Below are positions 1,370 to 8,006 of a stretch of 8,006 bases of DNA, piece by piece. Source of the stretch: a virus (Duplodnaviria > Heunggongvirae > Uroviricota > Caudoviricetes); the IMG/VR virus record IMGVR_UViG_2585427795_000008; one strand, 5' to 3'. Each line of letters opens with the position of its first letter. The stretch's first letter is position 1. Below the pieces are notes generated by a model. That model made no database searches. It worked only from the letters and a program-made list of their open reading frames with translations, and was not told the DNA's origin. Made by a program: the position numbers and the translations under genes.

Positions 1370-1508
1370 TTGTCCTCCTCTTAGCTGCTGAGGGAGTTTG
1401 TGACCGATATATCTGACATGATATTAAGCTCATGGCAGGTACATCTCTTGACTGGTCATAGAGATAAATTTAATGCTGAGAAATGCAGTATTGAATTTAT
1501 CAATTTTT

Positions 1509-1748
1509 CTATTTCCTGCGTATGGCACGTAACTTCTTAATGTGTTCTGCCGTTTCGATCTCTTCTGCTATCCGATCTGCATCAGCTTTATTCACAGGTT
1601 CAAAGTCATGATTAAAGCGGAACATGCTGGCGATACATGTTCTGCCTTTTCGGATGTAGTGAACTTTGTTGTGGGTAGAACGCAGGATTTTGCAGGGAGT
1701 GCCGTGGTGGTCGACGTACCAGGTGTTAGGAAAAATGATTCTGAACAT
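1509..1748 (-). CDS. Hypothetical phage protein (accessory/ea region)
   Basis: 79 aa ORF with ATG start and a GAGGTG SD 6 nt upstream. Same orientation as the int-xis operon. No family recognised from sequence alone. Confidence 0.5.
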   Translation of the reverse strand: MFRIIFPNTWYVDHHGTPCKILRSTHNKVHYIRKGRTCIASMFRFNHDFEPVNKADADRIAEEIETAEHIKKLRAIRRK

Positions 1749-1795
1749 TTTTACACCTCAGTTGGACGATGTTGAAATTTGCTGCTTTGAGGCCA

Positions 1796-2014
1796 TCACA
1801 GTCCCCATTGTTTGTTCTTAAGTTCGATCTCCTCCTGGCAACTTGCACAAGTCCGACAACCCTGAACGGCCAGGCGTCTTCGTTCATCTATCGGATCGCC
1901 ACACTCACAACAATGAGTGGCAGATATAGCCTGGTGGTTCAGGCGGCGCATTTTTATTGCTGTGTTGCGCTGTAATTCTTCAATTCCTGATGCTGAATCA
2001 ATGATGTCTGCCAT
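1796..2014 (-). CDS. TraR/DksA-family C4-type zinc-finger protein (phage TraR-like)
   Basis: 72 aa ORF with a CxxC-(17 aa)-CxxC motif (CCECGDPIDERRRLAVQGCRTCASC), the size and layout typical of TraR/DksA C4 zinc fingers; lambda-like phages carry a TraR homolog (orf73). Confidence 0.8.
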   Translation of the reverse strand: MADIIDSASGIEELQRNTAIKMRRLNHQAISATHCCECGDPIDERRRLAVQGCRTCASCQEEIELKNKQWGL

Positions 2015-2063
2015 CTTTCATTAATCCCTGAATTGTTGGTTAATACGCTTGAGGGTGAATGCG

Positions 2064-2090
2064 AATAATAAAAAAGGAGCCTGTAGCTCC
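2064..2090 (-). terminator. Possible intrinsic terminator (minus strand), or a hairpin inside a small ORF
   Basis: Plus strand GGAGC-CTGTA-GCTCC at 2076-2090; on the minus strand this 5-bp stem hairpin is followed by TTTTTTATTATT. The stem is short and GC-poor. Confidence 0.3.
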
Positions 2091-2112
2091 ATGATGATTT
2101 TGTTTTTCATGC

Positions 2113-2394
2113 TCACCGTTCCTTAAAGACGCCGTTTAACATGCCGATCGCCAGGCTTAAATGAGTCGGTGTGAATCCCATCAGCGTTACCGTTTCGCGG
2201 TGCTTCTTCAGTACGCTACGGCAAATATCATCGACGTTTTTATCCGGGAACTGCTGTCTGGCTTTTTTGATTTCAGAATTAGCCTGACGGGCAATACTGC
2301 GAAGGGCGTTTTCTTGCTGATGTGTCATTGAACAAGTCCCATGTCGGCAAGCATAAGCACACAGAATATGAAGCCCGCTGCCAGAAAAATGCAT
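2113..2394 (-). CDS. Hypothetical protein at the lambda orf61 position
   Basis: 93 aa ORF from an ATG at 2392-2394 with no convincing SD; an internal ATG at 2326-2328 would give 71 aa. Sits between the orf63-like ORF and the TraR-like gene in the same operon orientation. Confidence 0.45.
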   Translation of the reverse strand: MHFSGSGLHILCAYACRHGTCSMTHQQENALRSIARQANSEIKKARQQFPDKNVDDICRSVLKKHRETVTLMGFTPTHLSLAIGMLNGVFKER

Positions 2395-2404
2395 TCAGTG
2401 GTTG

Positions 2405-2596
2405 TCATACCTGGTCTCTCTCATCTGCTTCTGCTTTCGCCACCATCATTTCCAGCTTTTGTGAAAGGGATGCGGCTAACGTATGAAATTCTTCGTCTGT
2501 TTCTACTGGTATTGGCACAAACCTGACTCCAATTTGAGCGAGGCTATGTGCCATCTCAATGCTCGTTCTTAACTCAACAGGAGATGCTTTGTGCAT
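2405..2596 (-). CDS. Lambda orf63-like small protein
   Basis: 63 aa ORF with ATG start and a GGGGAG SD 5 nt upstream. Position (second gene downstream of exo) and sequence match my recollection of lambda orf63. Confidence 0.65.
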   Translation of the reverse strand: MHKASPVELRTSIEMAHSLAQIGVRFVPIPVETDEEFHTLAASLSQKLEMMVAKAEADERDQV

Positions 2597-2757
2597 ACAG
2601 CTCCCCGTTTATTATTTATCTCCTCAGCCAGCCGCTGTGCTTTCAGGGGATTTCGGGTAACAGAAAGGCCGGGAAATACCCAGCCTCGCTTTGTAACGGA
2701 GTAGACGAAAGTGATCGCGCCTACCCGGATATTATCGTGAGGATGCTTCATCGCCAT
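2569..2757 (-). CDS. Lambda orf60a-like small protein
   Basis: 62 aa ORF whose ATG overlaps the exo stop (ATGGCGATGA), indicating translational coupling. Position and sequence match my recollection of lambda orf60a. Confidence 0.65.
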
Positions 2758-3428
2758 TGCTCCCCAAATACAAAACCAATTTCAGCCAGTGCCTCGTCCA
2801 TTTTTTCGATGAACTCCGGCACCATCTCGTCAAAACTCGCCATGTACTTTTCATCCTGCTCAATCACGACATAATGCAGGCCTTCACGCTTCATTCGTGG
2901 GTCATAGTTGGCAAAGTACCAGGCATCTTTTCGCGTCACCCACATGCTGTACTGCACCTGGGCCATGTAAGCCGATTTTATTGCCTCGAAACCACCGAGC
3001 CGGAATTTCATGAAATCCCGGGAGGTAAACGGGCATTTCAGTTCAAGGCCGTTGCCGTCACTGCATAAACCATCGGGAGAGCAGGCGGTGCGCATACTTT
3101 CGTCGCGATAGATGATCGGGGATTCAGTAACATTCACGCCGGAAGTAAACTCAAACAGGGCTCTGGCGTCGTTCTCGTACTGTTTTCCCCAGGCCAGTGC
3201 TTTAGCGTTAACTTCCGGAGCCACACCGGTGCAAACCTCGGCAAGCAGGGTGTGGAAGTAGGACATTTTCATGTCAGGCCACTTCTTTCCTGAGCGGGGC
3301 TTTGCTATCACGTTGTGAACTTCTGAAGCGGTGATGACGCCGAGCCGTAATTTGTGCCATGCATCATCCCCCTGTTCGACAGCTCTCACGTCGATCCCGG
3401 TACGCTGCAGGATAATGTCCGGTGTCAT
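2748..3428 (-). CDS. exo: Lambda exonuclease (Red alpha)
   Basis: 226 aa protein [40 protein letters not shown]... is essentially lambda Exo as I recall it. Start ATG overlaps the bet stop (ATGA). Confidence 0.97.
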
Positions 3429-4210
3429 GCTGCCACCTTCTGCTCAGTGGCTTTCTGTTTCAGGAATCCGAGAGCTTTCACTGCTTCGGCCTGTGTCAGT
3501 TCTGACGATGCGCGAATGTCGCGGCGAAATATCTGGGAACAGAGCGGCAATAAGTCGTCATCCCATGTTTTATCCAGGGCAATCAGCAGAGTGTTAATCT
3601 CCTGCATGGTTTCATCGTTAACCGGAGTGATGTCGCGTTCCGGCTGACGTTCTGCAGTGTATGCGGTATTTTCGACAATGCGCTCGGCTTCATCCTTGTC
3701 ATAGATACCAGCAAATCCGAAGGCCAGACGGGCACACTGAATCATGGCTTTATGACGTAACATCCGTTTGGGATGCGACTGCCACGGCCCCGTGATTTCT
3801 CTGCCTTCGCGGGTTTTGAATGGTTCGCGGCGGCATTCATCCATCCACTCGGTAACGCAGATCGGATGATTGCGGTCCTTGCGGTAAATCCGGCATGTGC
3901 AGGATTCATTGTCCTGCTCAAAGTCCATACCATCAAACTGCTGGTTTTCATTGATGATGCGGGACCAGCCATCAACGCCCACCACCGGAACGATGCCGTT
4001 CTGCTTATCAGGGAAGGCGTAAATTTCTTTCGTCCACGGATTAAGGCCGTACTGGTTGGCGACGATCAACAATGCGATGAACTGCGCATCGCTGGCATCA
4101 CCTTTAAATGCCGTCTGGCGAAGAGTGGTGATCAGTTCCTGTGGGTCGACAGAATCCATGCCGACACGTTCAGCCAGCTTCCCTGCCAGCGTTGCGAGTG
4201 CTGTACTCAT
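3425..4210 (-). CDS. bet: Lambda Bet (Red beta) single-strand annealing protein
   Basis: 261 aa protein [66 protein letters not shown]... matches lambda Bet as I recall it. Confidence 0.97.
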
Positions 4211-4215
4211 CCGTT

Positions 4216-4512
4216 TTATACCTCTGAATCAATATCAACCTGGTGGTGAGCAATGGTTTCAACCATGTACCGGATGTGTTCTGCCATGCGCTCCTGAAAC
4301 TCAACATCGTCATCAAACGCACGGGTAATGGCTTTTTTGCTGGCCCCGTGGCGTTGCAAATGATCGATGCATAGCGATTCAAACAGGTGCTGGGGCAGGC
4401 CTTTTTCCATGTCGTCTGCCAGTTCTGCCTCTTTCTCTTCACGGGCGATCTGCTGGTAGTGACGCGCCCAGCTCTGAGCCTCAAGACGATCCTGAATGTA
4501 ATAAGCGTTCAT
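4216..4512 (-). CDS. gam: Gam (GamS form), RecBCD inhibitor
   Basis: 98 aa protein [60 protein letters not shown]... matches the lambda GamS portion. The in-frame upstream extension hits a stop at 4567-4569 after only 18 codons, so the 138 aa long form is not encoded. Confidence 0.95.
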
Positions 4513-4587
4513 GGCTGAACTCCTGAAAATGGCTGTGAAAATATCGCCCGCGAAATGCCAGGCTGATTAGGAAAACAGGAAAGGGGA

Positions 4588-4998
4588 TTAGTGATTGAGG
4601 CCGTTACCGCGTCCGTCGAGAAAAACTTCCACGAGCAAATCACGGGTATAAGTGCGCTCGATGCCGCGATGCAGATAAAGCCGTCCGCGTAAATTAGCTG
4701 ATGCAGTCCAGGTACCATCTTTGTGTTTGACCAGCATTCCTGGCATGACCGCACCGCGATTAACGGTCTGCGTTCCGTAATGTTGATGAACCATAAAAAC
4801 TCCTGCCCGTAAGCTGGGCTGCTGAACATATAGAGACTTCTGCGCGTATTCAGGCGGTGGATGGCCGCCGGTTGTCATAACTAAGCCGCCTCGTTGAAGC
4901 GACTGAGGTATAAAGTGTTGTGTTGATTTCAGCTGGTCACACCGACGTTCACGCGTCCGTTTCACCCCTCGCACTCCCCGAAGCCTGCTGAAATTCAA
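4588..4998 (-). CDS. Hypothetical protein at the N position (first ORF leftward of PL); start uncertain
   Basis: 136 codon open frame on the operon strand between the predicted PL and gam. The 5'-most start is TTG (4996-4998); internal ATGs at residues 41 and 69. N-terminal stretch is Arg-rich ([15 protein letters not shown]), loosely like the arginine-rich motif of N antiterminators, but the rest shows no similarity I recognise. Confidence 0.35.
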
Positions 4999-5071
4999 AC
5001 TGCGGATCTAAGCGGTCATCGCCACGGTGAAACAGGTGGTTACCGTATCGTTGTGTCGTTGCGATGAATTT

Positions 5072-5100
5072 ATTTAAAACTATAGTTGTTTTATCGTCAA
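5072..5100 (-). promoter_or_regulatory. PL-like early-left promoter
   Basis: Minus strand reads TTGACG (plus 5095-5100), a 17-nt spacer, then TTAAAT (plus 5072-5077). The region is near-identical to the PR promoter/operator (PR: GTTGTTGACTAAAAACAACCATAGTTTTAATCT; PL minus strand: GTTGTTGACGATAAAACAACTATAGTTTTAAATA). Confidence 0.5.
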
Positions 5101-5128
5101 CAACAAAAGTTGTTTTGTCGGTTGTTTT
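5085..5128. promoter_or_regulatory. OL operator cluster (repressor-binding inverted repeats)
   Basis: GTTGTT-N8-AACAAC at 5085-5104, AACAAC-AAAA-GTTGTT at 5099-5114, and a further GTTGTTTT at 5121-5128. Same half-site as the OR palindrome. Confidence 0.5.
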
Positions 5129-5240
5129 AAATATAACTGGTTGTATTTAGGATGGATTTATTTTGTGACTTGCATCGCATAGCGATAACTGAAGTGAGGT
5201 GTGGTGGTTTTTTGGACGGTATGAGTTATGAGGGGGAGGA

Positions 5241-5266
5241 AAAGAAAACCCGGCGCGGTTGCCGGG
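5241..5266 (-). terminator. Intrinsic terminator downstream of the lipoprotein gene (end of the immunity transcript)
   Basis: CCCGGC-GCGGTT-GCCGGG hairpin at 5249-5266; on the minus strand it is followed by TTTTCTTTTCC. Lies 8 nt past the lipoprotein stop codon. Confidence 0.6.
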
Positions 5267-5274
5267 TATGATTA

Positions 5275-5655
5275 TCAGTCAGCCCAACCTGATTTCGAGT
5301 TTATTTGGGTTTCTGACATTGTGTATTTCTTAATCGTGTCATCGTTAAAAAGAATAGTAAGTTCTTTTTTCGTACCGTTCGTTCCATTATGGAATAATCC
5401 ATAGAATGGAATAAAAGTGGTGCCATTAACTTTTACTTTTGCAAAGGCGTACTTCCAGATCTCGTTTCCACTGTCAGTATATGAAACAGCATCAGGAGAA
5501 CCAAAGTAAGATTTAACCTCATTCTTGGTTGTTTTACCTTCCTGAAGTTTAGACTGGACACTAATTTCAGTTTCATTTTTGAGTTGCTGGTTGCCTGAAG
5601 AAGCACACCCAGCCAATACAGATGCCATCATGGCAGCGATTAGGATTTTTCTCAT
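5275..5655 (-). CDS. Prophage lipoprotein with BamE/SmpA-OmlA-like domain, at the rex position
   Basis: 126 aa ORF with ATG start. Signal peptide MRKILIAAMMASVLAGC has a lipobox (LAG|C). Mature domain motifs GKTTKNEVKSYFGSPDAVSYTDSGNEIWKYAF and ELTILFNDDTIKKY resemble the BamE pattern (GMTQQQVAYALGTP...GTNTWFYVF...TLTLTFNSSGV). Region 5270-5880 is markedly AT-rich compared with its flanks. Confidence 0.8.
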   Translation of the reverse strand: MRKILIAAMMASVLAGCASSGNQQLKNETEISVQSKLQEGKTTKNEVKSYFGSPDAVSYTDSGNEIWKYAFAKVKVNGTTFIPFYGLFHNGTNGTKKELTILFNDDTIKKYTMSETQINSKSGWAD

Positions 5656-5884
5656 TTTATGTTTCCATTCATTATAATCAGAAACATCTTAACATAATGA
5701 TTCGAAATAAAAACCGCTACGAGATAGGGGGACATTTTGCTGACAGTAGCAACAAATCTCAGCTAACAACGAGAATATTTACTGAAATATGCAAACAGAT
5801 TTGGCGTTCTTATAGAGAATTTAGTGCAATATCTAATCCGAGTGGTATAAACCTTAACCTTCGCTCCCTTAAGTCGTAGATAAA

Positions 5885-6574
5885 TTAACCATGCTTCCTG
5901 TACGTCTGCGGCATGCTTCCAATGACCTTACCGAATATGAACACCCGGTTCATCTCGTCTTTCTCGATCGGGTCCCACGGCGAGTAGCTCTTGTTATCAG
6001 AGATAACCAGCAGCTTATCCTTCATCATTTGAAGACGTTTTACATGGGCAGTGTCGTCGTACAGAAACGCATAGATGCCATCACCGTCGAAAGATTTAAC
6101 AGTGATATCAACGAACAGCAGGTCACCTGGTTCGATCGTCCCTGACATGCTGTCACCTCGCACGTTAATGATGCGGATATTTTCCGCCTTCCTGCCATCG
6201 AACATGTGACGAGCATCGTCAAACGAGTACTCAACCGAGCGTAGAACTTCTACAAACTCACGGTTGATTACACCTGGCCCGGCACTGACTTCTATATCAA
6301 GAACGTCAATTTTGAAGTATTTGGAATGGCTGACAGTTGATTGTATTGGTTGCACTGTACTGTCTGACATATTTCCAACGCCAGAAGATAACCATTCTGC
6401 GCGCACACCCAAAGCGTTCGCGATCTCCACGATTTTAGTTGTTTGGTTAGCTTTCCCTGTTTCGATTTTCTGAATAGCAGCTTGGCTAACCCCGACCAAA
6501 TCCCCAAGCGCCTTTTGTGTAAGGCCTCGCGCTAATCTGGCTTCTTTAAGTCTTTCTGAGAGTGTTGTTTTCAT
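5885..6574 (-). CDS. cI-type prophage repressor (XRE HTH plus S24 LexA-like autopeptidase domain)
   Basis: 229 aa ORF. N-terminal HTH (LTQKALGDLVGVSQAAIQKIETGK), Ala-Gly candidate cleavage site (VSAGPG), and C-terminal S24 motifs (RGDSMSGTIEPGDLLFVD with the Ser, and a VKRL Lys). Divergent from the cro-like gene across an operator region. Not lambda cI by sequence. Confidence 0.92.
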   Translation of the reverse strand: MKTTLSERLKEARLARGLTQKALGDLVGVSQAAIQKIETGKANQTTKIVEIANALGVRAEWLSSGVGNMSDSTVQPIQSTVSHSKYFKIDVLDIEVSAGPGVINREFVEVLRSVEYSFDDARHMFDGRKAENIRIINVRGDSMSGTIEPGDLLFVDITVKSFDGDGIYAFLYDDTAHVKRLQMMKDKLLVISDNKSYSPWDPIEKDEMNRVFIFGKVIGSMPQTYRKHG

Positions 6575-6580
6575 AGATCA

Positions 6581-6609
6581 AATGTACAACCAAGGTTTTA
6601 TTTCATCAA
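6581..6609 (-). promoter_or_regulatory. Candidate PRM-like maintenance promoter for the repressor
   Basis: Minus strand TTGATG (plus 6604-6609), 17-nt spacer, TACATT (plus 6581-6586), ending about 6 nt before the repressor ATG. This would give a near-leaderless transcript as for lambda PRM. Confidence 0.35.
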
Positions 6610-6615
6610 ACGAAA

Positions 6616-6640
6616 ATGGTTGTTGACTAAAAACAACCAT
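6616..6640. promoter_or_regulatory. OR operator (perfect 9-bp inverted repeat)
   Basis: ATGGTTGTT-GACTAAA-AACAACCAT, overlapping the PR -35. Same half-site as the OL copies. Confidence 0.6.
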
Positions 6641-6651
6641 AGTTTTAATCT
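6623..6651 (+). promoter_or_regulatory. PR-like early-right promoter
   Basis: TTGACT (6623-6628), 17-nt spacer, TAATCT (6646-6651). Followed by a GGAGG SD and the cro-like ATG at 6679. Confidence 0.6.
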
Positions 6652-6678
6652 TGATTCGGATTAACCACGGAGGTTGTT

Positions 6679-6909
6679 ATGAACCCAGCAATCAAAACAG
6701 CGATCAATATCGTTGGTTCACAAAAGAAACTAGGCGATGCCTGCGAAGTTTCACAGCAGGCCGTCTATAAGTGGCTTCACAACAAAGCAAAGGTATCCCC
6801 TGAACATGTCGGCAGCATTGTTACGGCTACTGGTGGAGTTGTGAAGGCATACCAGATTCGCCCGGATCTTCCGAAGTTGTTTCCACACACCGAAAAGAAC
6901 GCAGCTTAA
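6679..6909 (+). CDS. Cro-like HTH regulator (YdaS/Cro family)
   Basis: 76 aa ORF with ATG and a GGAGG SD, divergent from the repressor. HTH-like segment (KLGDACEVSQQAVYKWLHNK) typical of Cro/YdaS-type proteins. Confidence 0.85.
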   Translation: MNPAIKTAINIVGSQKKLGDACEVSQQAVYKWLHNKAKVSPEHVGSIVTATGGVVKAYQIRPDLPKLFPHTEKNAA

Positions 6910-6921
6910 ATTTCCATTTCA

Positions 6922-6934
6922 CGCTCTTTAACAA
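6922..6934 (+). promoter_or_regulatory. boxA-like element (nutR position)
   Basis: CGCTCTTTAACAA lies between the cro-like and YdaT-like genes. It matches the boxA consensus of lambda nut sites (CGCTCTTA) and rrn operons (TGCTCTTTAACAA). No clear boxB hairpin follows. Confidence 0.45.
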
Positions 6935-6978
6935 TAAGCAATCAACTTAACAGTCAATTCAAACTAAAGGAGTCAATT

Positions 6979-7518
6979 ATGCAACCACTTACATACCAAC
7001 AGACTAGCGGATTTATTCCGACTGCGGTGATAAATCGTTCTCAAACAAAACAAGCTCCAGGCCACGAAAAAATCCGTGATGCCGTCCGCGCCTGGTCGGC
7101 TGTAGATAATCAGGATGTCGTTGCCGCACTCATTGTGAATGAGTATCGGGAGCAGGGCGACGGCACCATCGATTTCCCTGATGATGTCAGCCGTGCACGC
7201 CAGAAGCTGTTCCGCTTCCTCGATAACAAATTCGATTCTGAAAAATACCGAAATAACGTGCGTGAACTGACCCCGGCAATTCTGGCGGTACTACCGCTGG
7301 AATATCGCGGTTACCTGGTTGAGCAGGATAGCTTCATGACTCGGTTGGCTGAAATGGAAAAGGAACTCAGTGAGGCAAAACAGGCTGTCATTCTCAACGC
7401 ACCACGCCACCAGAAACTGAAGGAAATGAGTGAAGGTATTGTGTCGATGTTTCGTGTGGACCCGGATCTGGCTGGTCCATTAATGGCGATGGTGACCACC
7501 ATGCTGGGGGCAATATGA
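6979..7518 (+). CDS. YdaT-like protein at the cII position
   Basis: 179 aa ORF with ATG and an AAGGAG SD. The segment LTPAILAVLPLEYRGYL resembles E. coli Rac YdaT (IPAILAILPRELRHRL) as I recall it; NEYREQGDGTIDFP resembles EEYLRQGGGELPLVP. Not lambda cII. Confidence 0.75.
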   Translation: MQPLTYQQTSGFIPTAVINRSQTKQAPGHEKIRDAVRAWSAVDNQDVVAALIVNEYREQGDGTIDFPDDVSRARQKLFRFLDNKFDSEKYRNNVRELTPAILAVLPLEYRGYLVEQDSFMTRLAEMEKELSEAKQAVILNAPRHQKLKEMSEGIVSMFRVDPDLAGPLMAMVTTMLGAI

Positions 7519-7544
7519 CAGGTTCAGAAATGGCGAAAGTCGGT

Positions 7545-7577
7545 CTGCGGGAACAGAACCGACTTTCAGGTGCAAAT
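7545..7577 (+). other. Strong hairpin (10-bp perfect inverted repeat) downstream of the YdaT-like gene
   Basis: GAAAGTCGGT (7545-7554), 13-nt loop, ACCGACTTTC (7568-7577). The stem extends to about 13 bp with one bulge. No T-run follows; the IS903-group end begins 11 nt later. Confidence 0.5.
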
Positions 7578-7588
7578 CGGCTTTGTTG

Positions 7589-8006
7589 AATAAATCAGAT
7601 TTCGGGTAAGTCTCCCCCGTAGCGGGTTGTGTTTTCAGGCAATACGCACGCTTTCAGGCATACCTGCTTTCGTCATTTTGTTCAGCGCTCGTACCAGGGC
7701 CATAGCCTCCGCAACCTGACCATCGTAGTCACGCAGCGTCAGTGAACCCCCGAACAGCTGTTTTACCCGGTACATCGCCGTTTCCGCTATCGAGCGACGG
7801 TTGTAATCTGTTGTCCATTTCCACCGCGCATTACTCCCGGTCATTCGCTGATTAGCCACTGCACGGTTACGGTCTGCATATTCACCGGGCCAGTAACCCG
7901 CACCTTTTCGGGGAGGGATAAGGGCGCTGATTTTCTTACGCCGCAGTTCATCGTGACAGAGCCGGGTGTCGTAAGCGCCGTCTGCCGATGCTGCCCTGAT
8001 TTTTCT
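7589..8006 (-). mobile_element. IS903-group (IS5 family) insertion sequence, partial; continues past the window end
   Basis: Terminal inverted repeat GGCTTTGTTGAATAAATC at 7589-7606 matches the IS903 end as I recall it. It is followed by the C-terminal part of a transposase on the minus strand. Confidence 0.8.
7635..8006 (-). CDS. IS903-group transposase, C-terminal fragment (N-terminus lies outside the window)
   Basis: Frame is open from the window edge: ...RKISAASADGAYDTRLCHDELRRKKISALIPPRKGAGYWPGEYADRNRAVANQRMTGSNARWKWTTDYNRRSIAETAMYRVKQLFGGSLTLRDYDGQVAEAMALVRALNKMTKAGMPESVRIA. This is the typical IS903-group C-terminus. The ORF track shows only the part from an internal Met (7635..7859). 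Confidence 0.88.
   Translation of the reverse strand, partial: RKIRAASADGAYDTRLCHDELRRKKISALIPPRKGAGYWPGEYADRNRAVANQRMTGSNARWKWTTDYNRRSIAETAMYRVKQLFGGSLTLRDYDGQVAEAMALVRALNKMTKAGMPESVRIA

Follow-up and report, generated by a model that had tools for sequence, protein, structure and literature searches.

Gene content of the immunity region

The window, which is the whole 8,006-nt stretch of DNA analysed, has the layout expected of a lambdoid immunity region. The repressor gene is divergent from a cro-type gene that is followed by a cII-type gene and a replication gene, and the recombination genes lie on the far side. The complete gene order is int-xis-...-exo-bet-gam-kil-(PL)-lipoprotein-cI-(OR)-cro-cII-O, and the features needed for what follows are:

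2748-4512, minus strand: Red module, consisting of exo (2748-3428), bet (3425-4210) and gam (4216-4512)
4588-4794, minus strand: kil of the Rac KilR type (68 aa), the first gene after PL
5275-5655, minus strand: lipoprotein gene, in the position of lambda rexAB between cI and PL
5885-6574, minus strand: cI-type repressor (229 aa), with a predicted N-terminal 434-like HTH and a predicted C-terminal S24 self-cleaving domain
6669-6673: SD sequence of the Cro analogue, GGAGG
6679-6909, plus strand: Cro analogue (76 aa), Pfam YdaS family, with a P22_Cro-like HTH
6979-7518, plus strand: phi80-type CII (179 aa), Pfam YdaT family
7515-7579, plus strand: first 21 codons of replication gene O, cut by an insertion sequence
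7580-8006, minus strand: end of IS903B (IS5 family) with the C-terminus of its transposase

The three regulator genes had been placed exactly in the preliminary description, and their ORFs contain neither frameshifts nor stops. Matches to the HTH_3, S24, YdaS and YdaT families were all above the curated Pfam cut-offs. The repressor matched HTH_3 (E 5e-13) and Peptidase_S24 (PF00717, E 1.2e-18, 67 bits against a cut-off of 23), and was assigned to phrog_4 (E 9e-73), labelled 'transcriptional repressor' in PHROGs. Its HTH is most similar to that of the 434 repressor (E 4.5e-9). The Cro analogue is a small single-HTH protein encoded by the first gene of the PR operon, and matched YdaS_toxin (PF15943, E 6.6e-17, 61.5 bits against a cut-off of 30), P22_Cro (E 7e-5) and phrog_35 (E 1e-27), as expected for a member of the YdaS/Cro family.

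The third protein matched YdaT_toxin (PF06254, E 4.3e-30, 104.5 bits against a cut-off of 21), phrog_163, which is labelled 'CII-like transcriptional activator' (E 1.4e-66), and the solved YdaT structure PDB 8bt1 (E 5.5e-4), as well as 3c4r (E 1.1e-3). In an alignment, the sequence of its putative recognition helix, QKLFRFLD, is very similar to the QKIFRWLD of CP-933P YdaT. The Pfam match, the similarity to 8bt1, the identity to phi80 CII and the PHROGs assignment place this protein in the YdaT/phi80-type CII family, and the gene order agrees with the earlier observation that a YdaT-family protein occupies the cII position.

Predicted self-cleavage residues of the repressor

The repressor was aligned with the cI proteins of lambda and phi80. 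Ser142 (in GDSM) and Lys179 (in VKRL) share columns with the GNSM and FKKL motifs of lambda cI, the catalytic residues of which are Ser149 and Lys192, and both columns are invariant across the three proteins. Ala97-Gly98 (in VSAGPG) aligns with the AG and CG of the lambda cI and phi80 cI cleavage sites, respectively. A Ser/Lys dyad and an Ala-Gly linker site, which together form the signature of S24 self-cleaving repressors, were therefore both found. As judged from its sequence, the repressor is LexA-like with a complete Ala-Gly/Ser/Lys self-cleavage set, and the Pfam S24 match and the alignment of the dyad with lambda cI bear out its original description as a LexA-like protein with S24 motifs.

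Occurrence in sequenced phages and E. coli genomes

Positions 1519-7579 of the window are 99.97% identical to Escherichia phage PhiR26_1 (PV340555.1), the record of which annotates the immunity genes as cI, Cro and cII (and O). Identity is 100% over positions 5700-7579, which include the regulator ORFs, operators and promoters, and the repressor, Cro and CII proteins are each 100% identical to their PhiR26_1 counterparts. The window differs from PhiR26_1 in the int/xis module (1-1518) and in carrying IS903B in O. PhiR26_1 and its near-twins, PhiR5_1, PhiR34_1, PhiR47_2, IdasGreatGrand and Turner, share with the window the Red genes, kil and the lipoprotein gene.

The module was further found at 96-97% identity in five other sequenced phages and at 99.8-100% identity in at least 25 complete E. 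coli genomes, and at least 80% of the whole window is present in 483 genomes. Hence, the immunity region is already known: it is common in E. coli, and phage genomes deposited in GenBank carry it with the corresponding functional labels. The preliminary description had raised the possibility of near-identity to a well-characterised immunity region. The near-identity was found, in that all three proteins are those annotated as cI, Cro and cII in PhiR26_1, but a biochemical dissection of the PhiR26_1 switch, or any other literature on PhiR26_1 or IdasGreatGrand, was not found, nor did the literature searched contain experiments on this exact module.

Flanking genes and the insertion in O

The segment at 2400-4597, which carries exo, bet and gam in the lambda order, shows 97.4% DNA identity to lambda (NC_001416) over 2198 bp, whereas lambda has no detectable DNA similarity to positions 4598-7579. 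The mosaic first proposed from the sequence of the window, in which a lambda Red module is joined to an immunity region unlike that of lambda, is therefore real.

The kil product matched PRK11354 (E 1.8e-17) and phrog_294, and is 36% identical to KilR. The lipoprotein gene, the product of which belongs to phrog_3135 (E 3e-48) with a weak BamE-like match, is presumably co-transcribed with the repressor gene.

IS903B is inserted in codon 22 of O, and the switch itself is intact. The end of the insertion sequence matched an IS5 family transposase (E 2e-34) and is 99.8% identical to IS903B copies, and the PhiR26_1 O gene runs on at the point where the window changes to IS sequence. Because the insertion breaks the replication gene, this prophage copy is probably replication-defective, and its lytic cycle may never be completed.

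No homologue of N, nut or cIII was found between PL and kil, and control of the early operon would thus differ in detail from that in lambda. A put-type antiterminator downstream of PL, considered as an explanation for the missing N, was rejected as no similarity to the HK639 putL-like RNA was detected. Folding of the 271-nt PL leader was no more stable than that of shuffled sequence (z 0.09), and the window as a whole gave no Rfam match at E values of 1 or below. An N-like protein was also considered for the extended kil ORF (4588-4998), the upstream part of which is Arg-rich, and was rejected, as the extension has no Pfam match and its frame is lost in relatives.

Predicted operators and promoters

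The regulatory features of the region are:

5072-5113, minus strand: predicted OL/PL, with the PL -35 TTGACG at 5095-5100 and -10 TTAAAT at 5072-5077
5076-5089: predicted OL1
5100-5113: predicted OL2, a perfect palindrome, ACAACTTTTGTTGT
5248-5267, minus strand: intrinsic terminator, a 7-bp stem with 6 GC pairs followed by TTTCTTTT, which closes the repressor-lipoprotein transcript
6581-6609, minus strand: predicted PRM, read from the sequence, with -35 TTGATG (6604-6609), a 17-nt spacer and -10 TACATT (6581-6586)
6586-6599, plus strand: predicted OR3, ACAACCAAGGTTTT, within the PRM spacer and touching the PRM -10
6610-6623, minus strand: predicted OR2 (weaker), ACAACCATTTTCGT, abutting the PRM -35 and the PR -35
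6623-6651, plus strand: predicted PR, read from the sequence, with -35 TTGACT (6623-6628), a 17-nt spacer and -10 TAATCT (6646-6651)
6633-6646, plus strand: predicted OR1, ACAACCATAGTTTT, in the PR spacer
6940-6957, plus strand: candidate CII/YdaT-type site, the direct repeat AATCAA-N6-AGTCAA, in the cro-cII spacer

The operator motif ACAACNNNNGTTKT occurs at four sites (6586, 6633, 5076 and 5100), as compared with 0.05 expected by chance, and nowhere else in the 8 kb. These sites form two clusters, one between the repressor and cro genes and the other just upstream of the early-left genes. Repeated operators of a single type, clustered at OR and OL and overlapping promoters, are thus present as in lambdoid phages. 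OR2 and any OL3 are weak matches to the motif; OR2 has a weight-matrix score of 11.1 and occupies the position of the middle operator of the HK639 OR. The operators of phage 434 are also 14 bp in length (ACAA-N6-TTGT).

The position of PR was inferred from the sequence, and the same layout recurs at PL. The predicted PRM -10 lies 6 nt from the repressor ATG, an arrangement that would yield a leaderless repressor mRNA, by analogy with the leaderless mRNAs of lambda cI and PaaR2 (PMC8630535).

Candidate CII site

Direct repeats of the form AATCAA-N6-ARTCAA were found twice, as compared with 0.15 matches expected. They recall the direct TTGC-N6-TTGC repeats of lambda CII, and their half-site equals that of the YdaT box of CP-933P and Rac (PMC9986795, PMC11879457). 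However, the copy in the cro-cII spacer can be regarded only as a weak candidate for the PRE/CII site because it is not conserved in phages with a related CII (phi80, HK639, HK225, 4A7, mEp237 and CobraSix) and because the second copy, at 6690-6707, sits inside the cro codons for AIKTAIN.

The canonical inverted YdaT box of CP-933P and Rac, TTGATT-N6-AATCAA or, more generally, (T/A)TGATT-N6-AATCAA, which would be expected close to the ydaT start or the ydaS end, had no match in the window at one mismatch or fewer. The best matches have two mismatches, and the one that lies within the immunity region is at 6651-6668. The missing inverted box bears on the predicted site and not on the family membership of the protein. 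A stripped-down lambdoid circuit, in which a CII of the phi80/YdaT family would act on direct-repeat sites instead of an inverted box and would have no N, nut, put or cIII partner, is an unlikely reading of these findings.

Comparison with related immunity regions

The backbone of the window is the same as that of the Bievrevirus group comprising 4A7, Lambda_4C10, Perceval, D2, 1W and 3W. The kil-gam-bet-exo genes are common to both, the CII proteins are 97% identical, and the S24 domain is ~87% identical in DNA. However, immunity specificity differs: the window has its own repressor HTH, OR, cro (49% identical) and cro-cII spacer in place of those of the group, and other genes fill the slot between cI and PL. 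As compared with 4A7, the replaced block of the switch is confined to 6442-6977, with the S24 domain and cII shared. On this sequence comparison, the pattern is that of classic heteroimmune lambdoid phages.

Phage phi80 has the same order of an S24 repressor, a small HTH Cro analogue, CII and an O-like gene, and its CII, named cII in GenBank X13065, is 66% identical over the full length. However, phi80 cI is only 24% identical to the repressor and phi80 gene 30 is barely similar to the Cro analogue. Further, the operators of phi80 are 19 bp long, and the phage carries an M3/oop-like RNA as well as an N gene and its nut sites, none of which were seen in the window. With only CII being close, phi80 was rejected as the source of the whole module.

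The HK639 repressor is also 229 aa in length and is 44% identical, and the HK639 Cro and CII are 63% and 52% identical, respectively. The HK639 OR likewise consists of three 14-bp operators arranged as in the window, and a -10 TATATT is located 6 nt from the ATG upstream of cI. HK639 differs in the operator sequence (ATAAC-N4-GGTTAT) and in having an annotated antiterminator RNA of the putL-like type, for which the window shows no equivalent. The closest named relatives on sequence are therefore phi80 for CII, HK639 for cI and Cro, and 434 for the repressor HTH. The window shares the functional architecture of lambda and 434, with an S24 repressor, divergent cI and cro genes around a tripartite OR, OL/PL to the left and, between PL and cI, accessory genes, but it has no N, cIII or rex genes.

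Proposed operation of the switch

The region is very probably the immunity module of a temperate lambdoid phage that is common in E. coli and belongs to the PhiR26_1/Bievrevirus-like group, with a lambda-like switch. In a lysogen, the repressor would bind 14-bp operators (ACAAC-N4-GTTKT) at three sites in OR and at least two in OL, and so shut both PR (cro, cII, O and onwards) and PL (kil, gam, bet, exo and onwards). The PRM-like promoter would supply the leaderless repressor mRNA, with OR2 abutting its -35 and OR3 lying within it. Following DNA damage, RecA-stimulated self-cleavage at Ala97-Gly98 by the Ser142/Lys179 dyad would derepress PR and PL.

The small YdaS-family protein would serve as Cro, acting on the operators of the repressor. 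The YdaT-family protein would be a phi80-type CII, probably a tetrameric activator by analogy with YdaT proteins (PMC9986795, PMC11879457), that directs repressor synthesis after infection from a leftward PRE-like promoter (PMC11879457). These roles were assigned by reference to CP-933P, where YdaS acts as Cro and YdaT as CII, the repressor mRNA is leaderless and the switch is bistable (PMC8630535), to the finding that YdaT forms tetramers and recognises a defined box (PMC9986795), and to Rac, where YdaT activates a reverse PRE-like promoter (PMC11879457).

Alternative interpretations

The families of the Cro and CII analogues are named after Rac YdaS and YdaT, the kil gene is of the KilR type, and the immunity genes had been described as Rac-type. 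In such a switch, a non-cleavable RacR-like repressor would silence ydaS and ydaT, and induction would take place outside the SOS response. The Rac RacR/YdaS/YdaT and CP-933P PaaR2/YdaS/YdaT sets do share the gene order and the Pfam families of the Cro and CII analogues with the window. However, identity to the Rac proteins is only 30% (YdaS) and 34% (YdaT) over partial lengths, which makes them distant members of the same families, and CP-933P YdaT is likewise a distant match (E 5.5e-4). Neither PaaR2 nor RacR has an S24 domain, and RacR (158 aa) gave no significant alignment with the repressor (E 2.3), which carries the complete cleavage set. Direct comparison of RacR, YdaS and YdaT thus ruled out Rac as the closest relative, the proteins of phi80 and HK639 being closer; the Rac-type label does not hold, and a Rac-type mode of control can for practical purposes be discounted. 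It is also extremely improbable that the YdaS- and YdaT-like genes form a toxin-antitoxin, or toxin-repressor, pair with a role in addiction or stress in a cryptic prophage instead of in lysis-lysogeny. This reading draws on the Pfam names 'Bacterial toxin YdaS' and 'Bacterial toxin ydaT', and on the toxicity of ectopically expressed Rac ydaS and ydaT, as cited in PMC5917428 and PMC5917430. However, the two genes occupy precisely the places of cro and cII, with a self-cleaving repressor on one side and O on the other, the YdaT-like protein has its 66% identical counterpart in the phi80 cII product, and identical genes reside within a sequenced temperate phage genome. Overexpression of lambda cII is also toxic, though CII is no toxin (PMC5917428), and work on CP-933P and Rac concluded that the proteins are Cro and CII analogues and not a toxin-antitoxin pair (PMC8630535, PMC9986795, PMC11879457, PMC5917428). 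The behaviour of the switch, which had been presented as open between these two roles, has therefore been addressed experimentally in those prophages.

The interruption of O after codon 21 and an integration module unlike that of PhiR26_1 could indicate that the region is a decaying remnant in a dead prophage, with a switch that no longer functions. This is very unlikely, as the regulator ORFs are undamaged, they and the operators and promoters match PhiR26_1 at every position over 5700-7579, and damage to O leaves the repressor/Cro circuit unaffected; the cryptic prophage CP-933P is still bistable (PMC8630535). Since the module is letter-for-letter identical to that of a sequenced phage, the region represents an ordinary lambdoid switch and not an open puzzle. 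It matters little as a discovery, given that the question of the YdaS and YdaT roles has already been addressed in CP-933P and Rac. Its practical value is as a warning that 'toxin YdaS' and 'toxin YdaT', as used in Pfam, are misnomers for what are ordinary Cro and CII analogues; the label is repeated in RefSeq as 'toxin YdaT domain-containing protein'.

RNA element upstream of kil

An RNA hairpin element that is strongly covarying, unannotated and widespread was observed upstream of kil in the early-left operon. Its reading as a small polyproline leader ORF (MTTGGHPPP...) was rejected as a conserved peptide because the spacing between the AUG and hairpin 2 changes among relatives by numbers of nucleotides not divisible by 3, and because GCGCAGAAGUCU, conserved further downstream, falls in each of the three reading frames, although the AUG itself may be translated. 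This element is a more promising lead from the window than the switch.

Organisation of the prophage left arm

The window corresponds to the left arm of a lambdoid prophage of E. coli, with genes in the following order.

1-1143, int, first gene
1133-1369, xis, followed by small lambda-like ORFs and then exo, bet and gam
4588-4794, kil of the KilR type, after gam and followed by the PL/OL region
5275-5655, minus strand, lipoprotein gene with its own terminator at 5248-5267
5885-6574, minus strand, repressor gene (229 aa; HTH_3 and Peptidase_S24, Pfam), followed by OR
6679-6909, plus strand, Cro-like gene (76 aa; YdaS_toxin PF15943 and a weaker P22_Cro match, Pfam)
6979-7518, plus strand, CII-like gene (179 aa; YdaT_toxin PF06254, 104.5 bits against a cut-off of 21, Pfam)
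After cII, the first 21 codons of O, up to IS903B
7580-8006, end of IS903B (IS5 family)

The exo, bet and gam genes carry the expected Pfam domains, and their DNA is 97.4% identical to lambda over positions 2400-4597, with no lambda similarity beyond. As this match ends before the immunity region, the mosaic of lambda Red and non-lambda immunity genes proposed in the preliminary description is real, and all three immunity ORFs lie exactly where it had placed them. The boundary at 4597 is the gam-kil junction.

Positions 1519-7579 are 99.97% identical to Escherichia phage PhiR26_1 (GenBank accession number PV340555.1), whereas the int/xis module (1-1518) is not shared with that phage, indicating a recombination junction near 1519. 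IS903B is inserted after codon 21 of the replication gene O. Because O is interrupted, this prophage copy is probably replication-defective, with the switch itself intact. Among the best-matching E. coli genomes listed, none continues past the O/IS903B junction.

Immunity proteins and predicted operators and promoters

The repressor was previously described as LexA-like with S24 motifs. When it is aligned with lambda cI and phi80 cI, its Ser142 (GDSM) and Lys179 (VKRL) occupy invariant columns corresponding to the lambda catalytic dyad, and Ala97-Gly98 aligns with the lambda Ala-Gly and phi80 Cys-Gly position. The PHROGs labels for the repressor, YdaS-like and YdaT-like proteins are 'transcriptional repressor', 'transcriptional repressor' and 'CII-like transcriptional activator', respectively, and the last, together with the PF06254 match, bears out the placing of a YdaT-like protein in the cII position. 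The putative recognition helix of the CII analogue, QKLFRFLD, is very like QKIFRWLD in YdaT of prophage CP-933P.

The 14-mer ACAAC-N4-GTTKT occurs at four sites (0.05 expected by chance), found only in two clusters, OR and OL. The predicted operators, and the predicted promoters, all three of which were read from the sequence, are as follows.

6586-6599, OR3, inside PRM
6610-6623, other strand, OR2, weaker, abutting the PRM -35
6633-6646, OR1, in the PR spacer
5076-5089, OL1, overlapping PL
5100-5113, OL2, a perfect palindrome overlapping PL
6623-6651, PR, TTGACT, 17 nt, TAATCT
5100-5072, minus strand, PL, TTGACG, 17 nt, TTAAAT
6609-6604 (-35, TTGATG), 17 nt, 6586-6581 (-10, TACATT), PRM-like, ending 6 nt before the repressor ATG

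Phage HK639 repeats this three-site layout with a 14-mer of its own, ATAAC-N4-GGTTAT, which supports the assignment of these 14-mers as repressor and Cro operators. The position of OR2 against the PRM -35, and of OR3 within PRM, would give lambda-like positive and negative autoregulation. Given that no Shine-Dalgarno sequence lies upstream of the repressor ATG, and that the promoter geometry before HK639 cI is the same, the repressor mRNA would be leaderless, as are those of lambda cI and CP-933P PaaR2 (PMC8630535).

Lysogeny would be maintained by repressor bound at OR and OL, and induction would follow RecA-stimulated self-cleavage at Ala97-Gly98. On the strength of gene position, family membership and experimental work with homologues, the YdaS-family protein would act as Cro and the YdaT-family protein as CII. 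The suggestion that YdaS and YdaT might form a toxin-antitoxin pair is answered in the negative for the family by studies of homologues. In CP-933P, they exert bistable control over the PaaR2 locus and do not form such a pair (PMC8630535). YdaT, a tetramer with a POU-like HTH, recognises TTGATT-N6-AATCAA (PMC9986795). The site bound by YdaT of Rac is ATGATT-N6-AATCAA, and the protein switches on a reverse PRE-like promoter (PMC11879457). The argument from genetic context was made in Jobling's letter (PMC5917428).

Relationship to known phages

The label 'Rac-type' could not be upheld. RacR (158 aa) lacks an S24 domain and does not align with the repressor, and Rac YdaS and YdaT are just 30% and 34% identical to their counterparts, over partial lengths. 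HK639 cI, also 229 aa, is 44% identical to the repressor and HK639 Cro 63% identical to the Cro analogue, while the nearest named relative of the repressor HTH domain is the 434 repressor (E 4.5e-9). The phi80 CII protein, whose gene is labelled cII in GenBank X13065, is 66% identical over its full length, but phi80 cI and gene 30 are merely distant relatives of the repressor and Cro analogue. The module is therefore itself a mosaic of repressor/Cro and CII types. Such mixing is usual in the lambdoid group.

The same immunity module is found at 96-97% identity in PhiR5_1, PhiR34_1, PhiR47_2, IdasGreatGrand and Turner, and at 99.8-100% in at least 25 complete E. coli genomes among the best matches listed; 80% or more of the window is present in 483 genomes. 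The 4A7/Lambda_4C10/Perceval group has the backbone in common: its cII is 97% identical, and it shares kil, the Red genes and the part of the repressor that forms the S24 half. Positions 6442-6977, with the repressor HTH, OR, cro and the cro-cII spacer, are occupied by another block in that group, a textbook heteroimmune lambdoid pattern. The module is of a known kind and, at the sequence level, has already been deposited with identical annotation, its genes being named cI, Cro, cII and O in the PhiR26_1 record. The earlier proposal that near-identity to a well-characterised immunity region would make this a known type holds for identity (100% to PhiR26_1) and only partly for characterisation; no paper dissecting this particular module was found in the literature search.

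The kil gene and the accessory slot

The kil gene encodes a protein of the KilR type known from Rac (36% identical; PRK11354, E 1.8e-17) and is not lambda kil. A 68-aa start with a good Shine-Dalgarno sequence (AGGAG), the one used in RefSeq for 4A7, is more likely than the 125-aa 'Kil' ORF annotated in PhiR26_1, which would run through a structured RNA element.

In the position of lambda rexAB, between the repressor gene and PL, lies a slot that here holds the 126-aa lipoprotein (phrog_3135, weakly BamE-like), which could be a superinfection-exclusion factor. This slot behaves as a variable site for accessory or defence genes. In otherwise near-identical prophages it contains a SIR2-family protein, ASCH with one hypothetical protein, HipA kinase and DUF3037, PP2C phosphatase and Ser/Thr kinase, or an acetyltransferase; the stretches compared include 1432-3033 and 1048-2464 in comparison loci L130 and L005, respectively.

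A structured RNA element upstream of kil

A conserved element in the early-left operon lies directly upstream of kil (~4835-4925, minus strand), and is common at nucleotide level to phi80, HK639, HK225, CobraSix and several Klebsiella and Enterobacter phages. Its 15-nt core, GGCGGCCATCCACCG, retrieved at least 120 IMG/VR stretches, and the flanking architecture was the same in 105 of the 121 occurrences examined in these and the comparison loci. The element occurs in at least 105 IMG/VR contigs and in 2275 of the 5426 complete E. coli genomes, where it is never annotated; in one O157:H7 prophage it accompanies the same cI/YdaS/YdaT, kil, gam, bet and exo layout. Its positions in comparison loci are as follows, and it also occurs in L010-L129.

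~5342-5470, L003
~1050-1230, L006
~1175-1355, L007
~2540-2720, L009
3501-3581, L130

In RNA sense, an intrinsic terminator directly adjoins the element in most phages (missing in the window), followed by CAUACCU, hairpin 1 with many different stem sequences, the linker UUAUGAC, an invariant hairpin 2 (GGCGG-CCAUCCA-CCGCC), a spacer with GCGCAGAAGUCU, and a small GC hairpin beside the Shine-Dalgarno sequence of whichever gene comes next. Across 39 distinct sequences, pairing was 96.5% for hairpin 1 and 97.6% for the whole two-hairpin structure, with double-sided changes in 7 pairs (92 cells). Hairpin 1 covaries strongly, the covariation score being 0.467 against 0.02-0.09 for slid controls and 0.159 for shuffles, and RNAalifold independently predicts the same two hairpins. 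Rfam gave no match, and the core sequence was in none of the searchable papers. The element might act as a processing site, or it might regulate either Rho-dependent termination upstream of kil or translation of the gene that follows, among other possibilities. An embedded AUG does not open a peptide conserved across the compared sequences.

Candidate CII site and early-left control

The canonical inverted YdaT box was absent from a search of the whole window. The AATCAA half-site forms a direct repeat, AATCAA-N6-AGTCAA, at 6940-6957 within the cro-cII spacer, with a second copy at 6690-6707 (2 matches, 0.15 expected). These repeats were not accepted as an established CII site or PRE, since the second lies within cro, over the codons of A-I-K-T-A-I-N, and phages whose CII proteins are related conserve neither copy.

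Early-operon control is unlike lambda in detail; no N gene, nut site, put-like RNA or cIII was found between PL and kil. The PL transcript runs ~270 nt before kil (4795-5075, minus strand), and the folding of this leader, taken in full, is no better than that of shuffled sequence.

The cro-cII spacer of the window is AT-rich and lacks a GC hairpin, whereas in phi80, 4A7, HK639, HK225 and CobraSix the cro stop codon lies within one (GCCGCC-UAAC-GGCGGC type). The cro stop regions of relatives are at L003 8630-8660, L005 3565-3595, L006 5310-5340, L007 5330-5360 and L009 4690-4720. The hairpin resembles the stems of the tL1 terminators of the same phages.
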